From IMG/VR virus record IMGVR_UViG_2617270963_000012: DNA of 14,754 bases. One strand, written 5' to 3'. The notes under the pieces were generated by a model. That model saw only the letters and a list, made by a program, of their open reading frames with translations. It was not told where the DNA came from and ran no database searches. Made by a program: the position numbers and the translations under genes. Positions 9,917-14,754 of this stretch are shown piece after piece; position 1 is the stretch's first letter; every line of letters begins with the position of its first letter. This DNA comes from a virus. Its lineage: Duplodnaviria; Heunggongvirae; Uroviricota; Caudoviricetes.

Positions 9917-11536
9917 ATGTCAGATATCACCGCAAATGTTGTGGTAAGCATGCCTTCGCAACTCTTCACTATGGCTCGTTCTTTTTAAGCCGTAGCCAAT
10001 GGCAAAATTTATATCGGTAAAATTGACACTGACCCGGTAAATCCTGAAAACCAGATTCAGGTTTATGTGGAGAACGAAGACGGTTCTCACGTCCCTGTTT
10101 CGCAACCAATCATCATTAACGCTGCTGGTTACCCTGTATATAACGGACAGATTGCCAAGTTCGTAACTGTGCAAGGTCATTCGATGGCTGTTTATGATAC
10201 GTACGGTGCGCAGCAGTTCTATTTTCCTAATGTGCTGAAGTATGACCCTGATCAGTTACGACAGGATTTGTCTTCACAGGGCGGCGTAAACTTAGTTAAT
10301 GGTGCCGTTAGTTATGATAATCTGGGTAGTGAATACGGGCTGAATCTCATAGGTGAATATGCCGAAATATCAAATTTACGGGATGTAGCACCATCTGTAG
10401 GTGATAAGGTCATGGTGAAGGAGCACACCACAGGACGTGGTTTGTTAGGTGGTGGTGTTTTCGTAGCTGTATCAGGGAATTACACAGATGATGATGGAGT
10501 ATTTATTTCGTCTGCTTCCCCATCTGTATATTGGGTACGAAGTGGCGCAGGTAGTCATGTTATAATTGAATGGTTCGGTGGCAAATCTGAAGATCAGAGT
10601 TTAGATCATTCTCCTATCCTGGCTAACGCACAGTTATATGAAGGTCGATCGATAGAGTTTCAGTACGGAAGCTACTACTTTACACCTCCATGCGTCATCA
10701 AGCCGTCTATGCATTTCATCGGCAGCGGTGGCGCTAAAACATTCTGGCGAAACAAAAATATAAATGCGGACGCCACGGTGTTCTTCGCCAACACCGGGAG
10801 TGCATCTTCTTGGGCTGAAAATACAGTGTTCGAGCGCATTCATTTTAGTAATGACTCCAGCTCTACCCCCAGCAATGCGGCTATATCACTGCAACATGCG
10901 AGTCTATTTAAATTTGATAAGTGCGGTTTTTACAAGGCACCGATTTACGCATCAGATTTACACTGGGTTACTTGGAATGGCTGCGTATTAATCGACAGTA
11001 TGACCACAATTAACGAGGCCAGTGTATCACCAGCATTTCCTATTAACGAGGGTCCAGCATTTATCGACTGCTATATGGTCAGATCCCCTATAGATATAAC
11101 TGATGTTGCCGATTTGAGACTAGTAGGCACTTCGATGTTTTACGGACCTTACGGCATAAAGTCAACGACACACCGACCTTTAGATTCAGGGGCGGATTCT
11201 CGGGGATTACCGGTATTTATAACTAATAGCGTAATTGACAATATTGACGGTTATTGCTTGGACCTTAACAGAGTGGCGGTAGGAACTATCACAAACAGCC
11301 TGTTCTCTGGAGGAAGAGTGTCAGGGACTCCAGCAATACGTGCAACAGAGGTTTTGGGACTTAGCTTTAACGCCAATGTTATCCATTTCGCCGGTCAGGA
11401 ATGCATGTACCTCTATGACGTGCAGAATATATTAATGGGTAATAACTGGCAACACTTTCGTAGGTGTACCCGGAGTGGTAGGGCAGACAGGGTCTGGAAG
11501 GACAGTTTATACAGCCATGGCAAATGTAGGCCTTAA
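9917..11536 (+). pseudogene. Tailspike gene with P22-type N-terminal head-binding domain, interrupted by an in-frame TAA at codon 24 (9986-9988); divergent receptor-binding domain
   Basis: ATG at 9917 with GGAG 7 nt upstream. Translation [58 protein letters not shown]...[11 protein letters not shown]...LKYDPDQ parallels the recalled P22 gp9 N-terminus (MTDITANVVVS...[24 protein letters not shown]...), with TAA where P22 has a Lys codon. The listed ORF 10067..11536 is the downstream part of the same frame, opening at GTG. Confidence 0.85.
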
Positions 11537-11688: not shown

Positions 11689-13479
11689 TTATTTCATCTC
11701 TATTGAAATTGAGCTAATACATGAGCTTGTGTCTGAGTTATATATTCTCACCTCGACATCAGGATAGGTTTTATCAATGTAGAAATCCATGTCAACTACA
11801 TTATTGATTTTAGCAATTAATTTTTTACCACCAAACGCTACAATATCACCTAATACATCACCTCTACCACTTTTTTCAATATGCATTTTATACATACCTT
11901 TCTTGAGAGGTTTGTATGGTCCTGTTACCAAGAATGTAGCACCGTCTTTTTTGCATACTTGAAATTCATCACTATAACCTAGAGAACCAAAGTATTTTGA
12001 ATTGGTTAACGTGTGAAAACCGGTAAATGGTATATTTATCCCGTCATTCCATACTAAGATAAACTTTGACATGACTTTATCAATTACATCAGGTCTTCCA
12101 TATTGCATTATTGCAGCGTCCATGTCTTCTTTACTATCAGCTATAATAAATGAATTGTTTTGCTCATAATTATTTATTTTAGCTAACCATAAAAATGGTT
12201 TTACACTTCCTTCATGGTTATTAAATACTACTGGCGATATCTCTGAACCACTATTTAATGAAACTGACGACGCAAACCAGAATGAAGCAAAACCTGCTTT
12301 AAGATTATGCTCCTTTATATATTTTGAAATATCATTAATTTCATGGTTTTTTTTATCTAATGAAATGGCGTTACCATAAATTATGGCACCGCTAACAAAA
12401 GACAAGGAAAGCAGGAATAAAGATGTTTTTTGGCTTATATTTACATTTCTACAAATAAATACAGCCCCGAAAATTACAGATGGAGCAATATATCTTATTG
12501 ATTCAACCGCTGATGGAATATTACTAAATAAGAATGCGCACGGCATTATAATCGCCGTAAGAAGCAAAGCTCTATCAATGGTTGAGAATCTTGTTATTTT
12601 TCTTGCATTAGAAGCAATGATGTAAACAAAGAACAATAGAAAGCACAGTCTAATTATGGATGAAAAAGACTGTAGCCCAATATCCATTCCAAAAAAATAT
12701 GCTTCGAAAAGACGTAATAAACCAACACATAAGAAATATAAGTTATTAATAAATTCTTCTTGTGTGGCAAACTTAGGATAACCTATTCCTGGCAATTGAA
12801 ATCCGCCAATTTCTTGCACGTAGTATAAGAGTGTTTTCGATAAAATAAAGGCAAGAAATATAGATGCCGCATAGTGCAGGTGAACTTTGTTTCGTTTGTA
12901 AAATAATTCAATTGCCAATGATGAAATTAAAGGTATCAAAAATGCGTATTTGCTTATGTCGTCGCTAAAAAATATGGCTAGGCTTAAGAGAAAAACAATG
13001 AGATAATGATGTATGTTAGCTTTGTATACAGTTGTTCTTTCTATTATAATATAAATAATTGCTGTATATAAATAAGCCCCAATATGTGATACGGCAAGGT
13101 TAAATATATTTGATGAATAAGCTCCTAGAATTCCAAATGAGAAGAATATTGCCCATGGCAACTTCTTTTTGTGATATGAAAGTATTATGCAGCATATTGT
13201 CAGAGCAGAAATAAGGATTGACGGAACTAAATATGATTGAACTTTATTACTGATACCTATTATATCCAGCAATGCATACCAAATAAGGTCTGTAAAATAG
13301 AAAGTTACGGTTGAAAGAAACCATCCTGAAAGTAGAATGTTTCCATTTGCTATGTCGTGTGAAATGATTACACCAGAAGCCTGATCAGAACTCGGGGTGT
13401 AACCATATCCAATGTAGCAATTCATCGCCACTAGAATAATAAACGAGATAAAAAGTAGTAATTTAAATCTTCTTGTCAT
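11689..13479 (-). CDS. GtrC-family polytopic membrane protein (596 aa); putative serotype-specific O-antigen glucosyltransferase
   Basis: Third gene of the gtr operon. Strong RBS AGGAG 7 nt upstream of ATG. Start overlaps the gtrB stop by 17 nt. N-terminal about 400 aa is very hydrophobic (about 10 or more predicted TM segments) and the C-terminal about 190 aa is hydrophilic. Markedly AT-rich by eye compared with the flanking genes. Confidence 0.7.
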
Positions 13480-14395
13480 TTATTTTCTCCTTTAAGATGT
13501 ATTTAGGTCTTGCCTTGGTTTCTATGTAAATCCTCCCGATGTACTCTCCAAGTACACCGATGCCGATTAGTTGGATCCCTCCAAGAAACAGAATGGACAC
13601 CAGCAGTGAAGGGTATCCTCGTACAGCATTTCCAAATGCGAGAGTGTCAAATATCATCCATGCGCCATACAGAAATGCTAGGCCAGCTACCACTAACCCG
13701 ATATAAGTCCATATGCGCAGGGGAAATGTTGAGAAGCTTGTAATCCCTTCGAGCGCAAGATTCCACAATTTCCATCCATTGAATTTTGAATTACCAGCAA
13801 CACGTTCTGCGCGGGAATATTCGACGATGTCTGTCGAGCCTCCTACCCAACTCAGTACCCCTTTCATAAAAAGGTTGCGCTCTGGCATAAGCTTGATATT
13901 TTCGACAACCTCACGGCTCATTAACCGGAAATCACCAACATTCTCTTCAATCTTTGGGTTGCTTATTTTATTGTGGAGCTTATAGAACCATTCTGCAGTC
14001 TTGCGCTTCAGTCTTCCATCTGTAGAACGGTCATAGCGCTTAGCCAGTACCATATCAGCCCCTGCCTTCCACTTTTCAATAAGATGAGGAATAACCTCAA
14101 TCGGGTCTTGCAGGTCAACATCAATTGGGATTATCGCATCCCCGTTTGCATGGTCTAACCCTGCAAATAATGCTGGTTCTTTACCAAAGTTGCGTGTAAA
14201 TGACAGCGGAACAACTAGCGGATCAGAAACAGCCAGAGCGTTAATGATTGACTCCGTAGCGTCTTTGCTTCCGTCATTTATGAAAACAATTTCCACTTCA
14301 TATGACTTCAACTCTTCGAATTCACGTACCGTTTTATAAAAAATTGGTATCGCTTCCTCTTCATTGAAGACAGGAACGACAAGAGATATCTTCAT
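13463..14395 (-). CDS. gtrB: Bactoprenol glucosyltransferase GtrB (GT2 family), 310 aa
   Basis: Translation [29 protein letters not shown]...[14 protein letters not shown]...[11 protein letters not shown]... matches conserved GtrB as I recall it, including GT2 DxD-type motifs and two C-terminal TM helices. ATGA overlap with the gtrA stop. Confidence 0.95.
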
Positions 14396-14754
14396 TTCGC
14401 ATCCCTAAAGACAATGAACTTTGAATAGACGAAACCGCACACCAGGCTGATGGCGGAGAAAGTGATAAGGGTGACCATCGGGGGAAGTGCGCATCTATCA
14501 GCAGCCCACCCGACGACAACACTCAATGTTCCCATGAATCCCACGTATAACAAGTAACGCATCGTTGTAGTCGATGCCTTGAATGTGAATTTTGCATTCG
14601 CGAAGAAGCTAAAACTCACAGCCACAACGAAACCTGCGAAGTTTGCCAGAGCCTGATTGGTATGCGCGGCATAGATACATACACCAAAAACCACCCAGTG
14701 TATAAGTGTGTTCAGCACACCAATCGAGGTGTACTTTGCAAATAGCTTTAACAT
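14392..14754 (-). CDS. gtrA: GtrA, small 4-TM flippase for undecaprenyl-phosphate-glucose (120 aa)
   Basis: 120-aa hydrophobic protein [31 protein letters not shown]... immediately upstream of, and overlapping, gtrB. The ATG coincides with the last three bases of the window, so the promoter and any phase-variation elements are outside it. Confidence 0.9.

Follow-up and report, generated by a model that had tools for sequence, protein, structure and literature searches.

The in-frame TAA at codon 24 of a tailspike gene raises the question of whether the stop is a genuine lesion of the gene, a functional signal, or a mistake in the assembled sequence. The gene lies in a stretch of 14,754 nucleotides (the window, whose coordinates are used throughout), which an exact-protein look-up placed at positions 2-14755 of contig JHDN01000022.1 in the Escherichia coli draft GCA_000601155.1. 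Complete E. coli genomes match the chromosomal flank of the locus (ybhB, bioABFCD, uvrB) at 99.1-99.5% identity. The same locus is present in two drafts with neighbouring accessions, GCA_000601175.1 (JHDM, L004) and GCA_000601335.1 (JHDL, L006/L020), which together with the source draft (JHDN) form a set of three sister assemblies. The first-pass annotation regarded the stop, together with an insertion sequence (IS) in the scaffold gene, as pointing to a non-infective prophage or to a sequencing error.

The tailspike frame and its family

The TAA is in frame with the ATG at 9917, and past it the frame stays open to the stop at 11536, for a total of 539 codons; the codons on its two sides thus belong to one tailspike frame, as had been stated. 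The stop differs from the AAA (Lys) codon by a single base, A>T at 9986 (TTTTAAA to TTTTTAA), which agrees with the first reading, since lysine stands at this place in the P22 gp9 structure and AAA in the relatives. The stated resemblance of the flanking codons to the N-terminal domain of P22 gp9 also proved correct. When codon 24 is read as Lys, the head-binding domain (PF09008) is matched over its entire length, and the product aligns from residue 1 to the solved structures of Sf6 gp14 (7sg7) and P22 gp9 (8tvr, 2xc1, 1lkt), both of which have lysine at codon 24. Gene callers place the start of a 489-aa ORF at GTG 10067, the first in-frame start 3' of the TAA. A product restarted there would lack the beginning of the domain, as the annotation had foreseen, with only profile positions 51-113 of PF09008 retained. 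The annotated tailspike starts of HK620, Sf6, Sf101, CUS-3, and VSe13 correspond to the same upstream ATG. The possibility raised in the annotation, that related functional phages begin downstream of the stop, is therefore not borne out, and we reject such a start in view of the upstream ATG and the lysine at the TAA codon in all functional relatives.

The frame shares the complete head-binding domain (PF09008, 1-113/113) with P22 gp9, Sf6 gp14, HK620 gp9, and the IME10 and Sf101 spikes; its residues 1-51 are identical to those of the IME10 tail protein save for the stop. The gene closes the late operon: it follows gp16 and immI and lies next to gtr and att, in the order coat, gp4, gp10, gp26, gp14, gp7, gp20, gp16, arc/mnt, tailspike, gtrCBA, and then ybhB-bioA. 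This placement, with gp16 and the arc/mnt gene on one side and the gtr cluster on the other, is likewise shared with the P22-family spikes. Unlike these, the frame in the window has a stop as its codon 24 and, towards its 3' end, a 161-nt deletion that shifts it. Its N-terminal domain and its position among the neighbouring genes mark the gene as a tailspike of the P22 family (Lederbergvirus). The beta-helix of such a spike is detected as a PF13229 match over residues 433-580 of an intact 596-aa relative. The receptor-binding body (window 10500-11446), on the other hand, is unrelated to the bodies of P22, Sf6, and HK620 and instead resembles tailspike 3 (TSP3) of CBA120 (PDB 6nw9 and 5w6f, E 2e-25). 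The match to TSP3 spans residues 210-565, and in the window the body is curtailed by the 161-nt deletion.

The surroundings of the gene also yielded several observations in their own right. An Arc/Mnt-type repressor gene (PF03869 and PF11423; 9535-9828, minus strand) lies between gp16 and the tailspike, with no ant gene beside it. A gtrA/gtrB/gtrC-like O-antigen glucosylation cluster (11689-14754) adjoins the spike body, and no Pfam family matches its 596-aa GtrC-like protein. The same spike body is found in E. coli GF66.2 and PSS-11, at 98.8% identity from window position 9996 on, while codons 1-26 of their spikes have diverged and an HNH endonuclease gene stands upstream in place of arc/mnt. 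The mosaic joint falls about 10 nt past the TAA site (window 9917-9996; L001 2922-3001).

Table 1. Features of the window and differences private to single sister assemblies
Feature	Position	Strand	Sequence or domain	Evidence or effect
Right end of 1310-bp IS3-family element (transposase 3' part and terminal inverted repeat)	1..474	+	rve, rve_3, rve_2	
Scaffold gene, 3' remnant	475..898	+	PF09306	Profile positions 150-258
Head_binding domain, codons 1-113, broken by TAA	9917..10255	+	PF09008	Profile 1-113/113, E 4.5e-67
Tailspike codons 1-23	9917..9985	+	MSDITANVVVSMPSQLFTMARSF	N-termini of IME10 and E. coli ET665 identical
In-frame TAA, codon 24	9986..9988	+	TAA	T in contig JHDN01000022.1 only; A in all other sequences examined
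First in-frame start 3' of TAA, codon 51	10067..10069	+	GTG	Weak AGG 5 nt upstream
Single remaining 12-bp direct repeat	11435..11446	+	ATGGGTAATAAC	Junction of 161-nt deletion
Out-of-frame tail, 29 aberrant codons and stop	11447..11536	+		Window versus L005 translations
Private difference, source (JHDN)	9986		TTTT[A>T]AAG	Makes stop
Private difference, source (JHDN)	14060	minus	GG[T>G]G, GGT>GGG	Synonymous, Gly112 of gtrB
Private difference, source (JHDN)	L003:15801	minus	GGG[T>G]G, GGT>GGG	Synonymous, Gly in bioA
Private difference, JHDL (L006 and L020)	6148		GGGG[T>G]AA	gp7 stop TAA to GAA; 258-aa gene call
Private difference, JHDL	L003:20046	minus	TT[G>T]T	Q25K in bioD
Private differences, JHDM	none			

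IS-associated loss and a deletion in the tailspike

The presence of an IS in the scaffold gene was confirmed: the window opens with the right end of an IS3-family element that abuts the 3' part of this gene. The element has 25-nt terminal inverted repeats and thousands of copies in E. coli, and all three draft contigs start within it. It adjoins the scaffold gene 461 nt into the coding sequence, and those first 461 nt are missing; the intact 294-aa scaffold genes of loci L011-L018 align from window position 475 only. The IS junction is shared by a complete E. coli genome, CP116919.1 (L014), which is 99.9% identical to the window from position 1. In that genome (7793-9566), a truncated erf gene lies on the far flank of the IS, such that erf is joined to the scaffold gene via the IS. 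Because erf is truncated at the IS, the immunity, replication, lysis, terminase, and portal genes, about half of a prophage, are missing there; its integrase frame is also broken. We infer that the source prophage has the same left-hand structure. By the IS3-family truncation of its scaffold gene and the IS-associated loss, the prophage, as read from its sequence, is a defective remnant. It resembles other defective P22-like prophage remnants of E. coli in the IS-cut scaffold gene and in a direct-repeat deletion in the tailspike, and differs from them in no respect of kind, being a typical example.

The second lesion lies near the 3' end of the tailspike gene. The intact 596-aa relatives L005, L007, L008, and L014 retain both copies of ATGGGTAATAAC, 161 nt apart, and the relatives that encode the 596-aa tailspike are 99.98% identical to the window, where a single copy remains. 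The loss of 161 nt shifts the frame, so that 29 aberrant residues stand in place of the final 86 in the 596-aa protein. The deletion junction is present only in the three sister assemblies and in L113, an IMG/VR copy that matches JHDM, and none of the complete E. coli genomes searched has it. An assembly artefact was considered as its source and rejected: three assemblies show the deletion separately, and 12-bp direct repeats flank it, so it is real. Through this frameshifting deletion, the tailspike gene is a pseudogene, whichever base stands at 9986. The uninterrupted frame of a functional P22-type tailspike is not found here, being broken both at codon 24 and by the deletion. Thus, the supposition of a non-infective prophage stands insofar as the prophage is defective, but it does so through the 161-nt deletion and the IS-associated loss; the TAA is better explained by an error than by decay.

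The base at 9986 and the private differences of the drafts

The T at 9986 has no counterpart in any sequence that was compared with the window. An A is found in both sister drafts (JHDM and JHDL), in L113, in the near-identical loci L005, L007, and L008 from metagenome and Logan assemblies, and in L014, where it occurs with the same IS junction. A genuine nonsense pseudogene would be expected to reproduce its stop among such loci, and the TAA was reproduced in no sister or near-identical locus. Among more distant relatives, codon 24 is AAA at the DNA level in IME10, Sf101, Sf6, CUS-3, the P22-like Salmonella phage VSe13, and the E. coli strains ET665 and GF66.2, while HK620 has AAA at codon 25, owing to one extra residue. 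The alignment with the N-termini of P22, Sf6, and HK620 that the annotation had proposed accordingly places lysine there in all three, and all six functional phages examined have A at the TAA site. Broader scans gave the same picture. A 42-mer with W at 9986 had 145 matches (41 metagenome, 103 viral, and 1 GTDB loci), every one of them with A. The interval 9950-10025 is covered in 881 complete E. coli records, with a best match of 75/76, so that there is no exact 76-mer match among those listed; the best of them have A at 9986. The TAA allele was not found in an exact 43-mer scan of the GTDB species representatives. A look-up of the IS-fused scaffold fragment for further assemblies of the same lineage returned the source contig alone, and a search for a Logan assembly of the source strain found none.

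A comparison of the sister contigs over 19.8 kb (JHDM) and 21.5 kb (JHDL) places this base in a wider context. The three contigs differ at only five sites, each private to one assembly (Table 1), and at no site are two sisters joined against the third. All five differences are transversions into the base of the neighbouring run, making a run of at least four. Only 5.1% of the possible substitutions in the region make such a change, so the probability that all five would do so is P = 3.4e-7, or about 2e-9 if the transition:transversion ratio is set to 2. Moreover, three of the five are, on one strand, exactly GGT>GGG, the strongest systematic-error motif of Illumina sequencing (Meacham et al. 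2011, PMC3295828). The likeness to the errors described there extends to GGT>GGG in three of the five differences and to adoption of the adjacent run's base in all of them, whereas the TTTT-A>T change that makes the TAA differs from the GGT>GGG motif. In contrast, the homopolymer signature is missing from the three differences (T/A, A/G, and C/T) that occur only in L005, a metagenomic relative. The sister singletons amount to about 1.5e-4 per base, even though the rare deletion and the IS junction, both of them real, are common to all three assemblies. In their effects, the five differences comprise one stop lost, one stop made, two synonymous changes, and one Q>K, a spread that fits what would be expected of noise. 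The loss of the gp7 stop in JHDL is probably also an error.

The complete genome record shows differences of another sort. Relative to the drafts, L014 has AG/GA swaps in GGC_CC contexts (window-equivalent 426-427 and 565-566) and two 1-nt homopolymer deletions (window-equivalent 7509 and 8308) that break gp16. These swaps and deletions look like long-read consensus errors in the CP116919.1 record.

Error, mutation, or function

The signature in the assembled sequences makes a consensus error the most likely origin of the TAA, a reading that we hold with good though not complete confidence, because the change of TTTT-A to TTTT-T belongs to the homopolymer-extending class of private differences. 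The stop would then have arisen in base calling or assembly of draft GCA_000601155.1 and would not be a property of the organism, and the true codon, like that of every relative, would be AAA (Lys24). Only JHDN has the variant, whose context is both typical of systematic error and common to the other private differences. Against an error stand the nature of the change, an A>T after TTTT and not the canonical GGT>GGG, and the size of the sample, the signature being drawn from five differences only. In addition, transient-misalignment (dislocation) mutagenesis can give real substitutions in the same context. Of the two outcomes that the annotation had offered, a sequencing error is thus the better explanation of the stop, with a T private to one draft and a homopolymer signature, but it is not linked to the IS in the manner proposed there.

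The foremost alternative is that the A>T change is a genuine nonsense mutation of very recent date, confined to this isolate and representing neutral decay in a tailspike that was already non-functional. The state of the locus lends this some plausibility: the tailspike already carries the shared frameshifting deletion, the scaffold gene is cut by the IS, and the related L014 lacks the segment from erf to the scaffold gene. With both the gene and the prophage already broken, there would be no selection against a stop codon, and TAA is a single base away from AAA. Nevertheless, we regard such a mutation as unlikely. Neither sister draft has the T, nor does any other sequence examined, and a context signature shared among the private differences is very unlikely for real substitutions (P ~3e-7). 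Further, about 1.5e-4 differences per base, none of them a transition and none at a shared site, would be odd for isolates that have rare structural lesions in common. A more general form of the argument is that all five homopolymer-extending transversions are real, having been produced by strand misalignment of the dislocation type or by a nucleotide-pool mutator at work in these E. coli isolates, in which case the tailspike stop would be a single neutral hit among them. This would account for the common context, but we consider it very improbable.

That the stop is functional, by readthrough or suppression or with the shorter product restarted at GTG 10067 as the real one, is scarcely credible: a weak AGG lies 5 nt 5' of that GTG, and gene callers do report the 489-aa ORF, yet the stop is conserved in no relative, AAA standing there instead, functional phages all start at the upstream ATG, and of the 113 positions in the head-binding profile the restarted product would retain 51-113 alone while still bearing the C-terminal frameshift. 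Suppression by a phage-encoded tRNA was likewise rejected, as a search of the window returned zero tRNA genes.

On the reading preferred here, a consensus error, the organism itself probably lacks the TAA, which is not to be read as biology. Were the stop real, it would add a further neutral lesion to a gene already dead, in a prophage that is itself a remnant. In either case its significance for biology is small, and recoding, readthrough, or a downstream start is without support. If the stop is an error, as is likely, it calls for caution with automated pseudogene calls in old draft assemblies, where artefacts can be recognized without recourse to reads by comparing sister assemblies and inspecting the sequence around each private difference. 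It is the 161-nt deletion and the IS-associated truncation, rather than the stop codon, that really inactivate this tailspike and its prophage.
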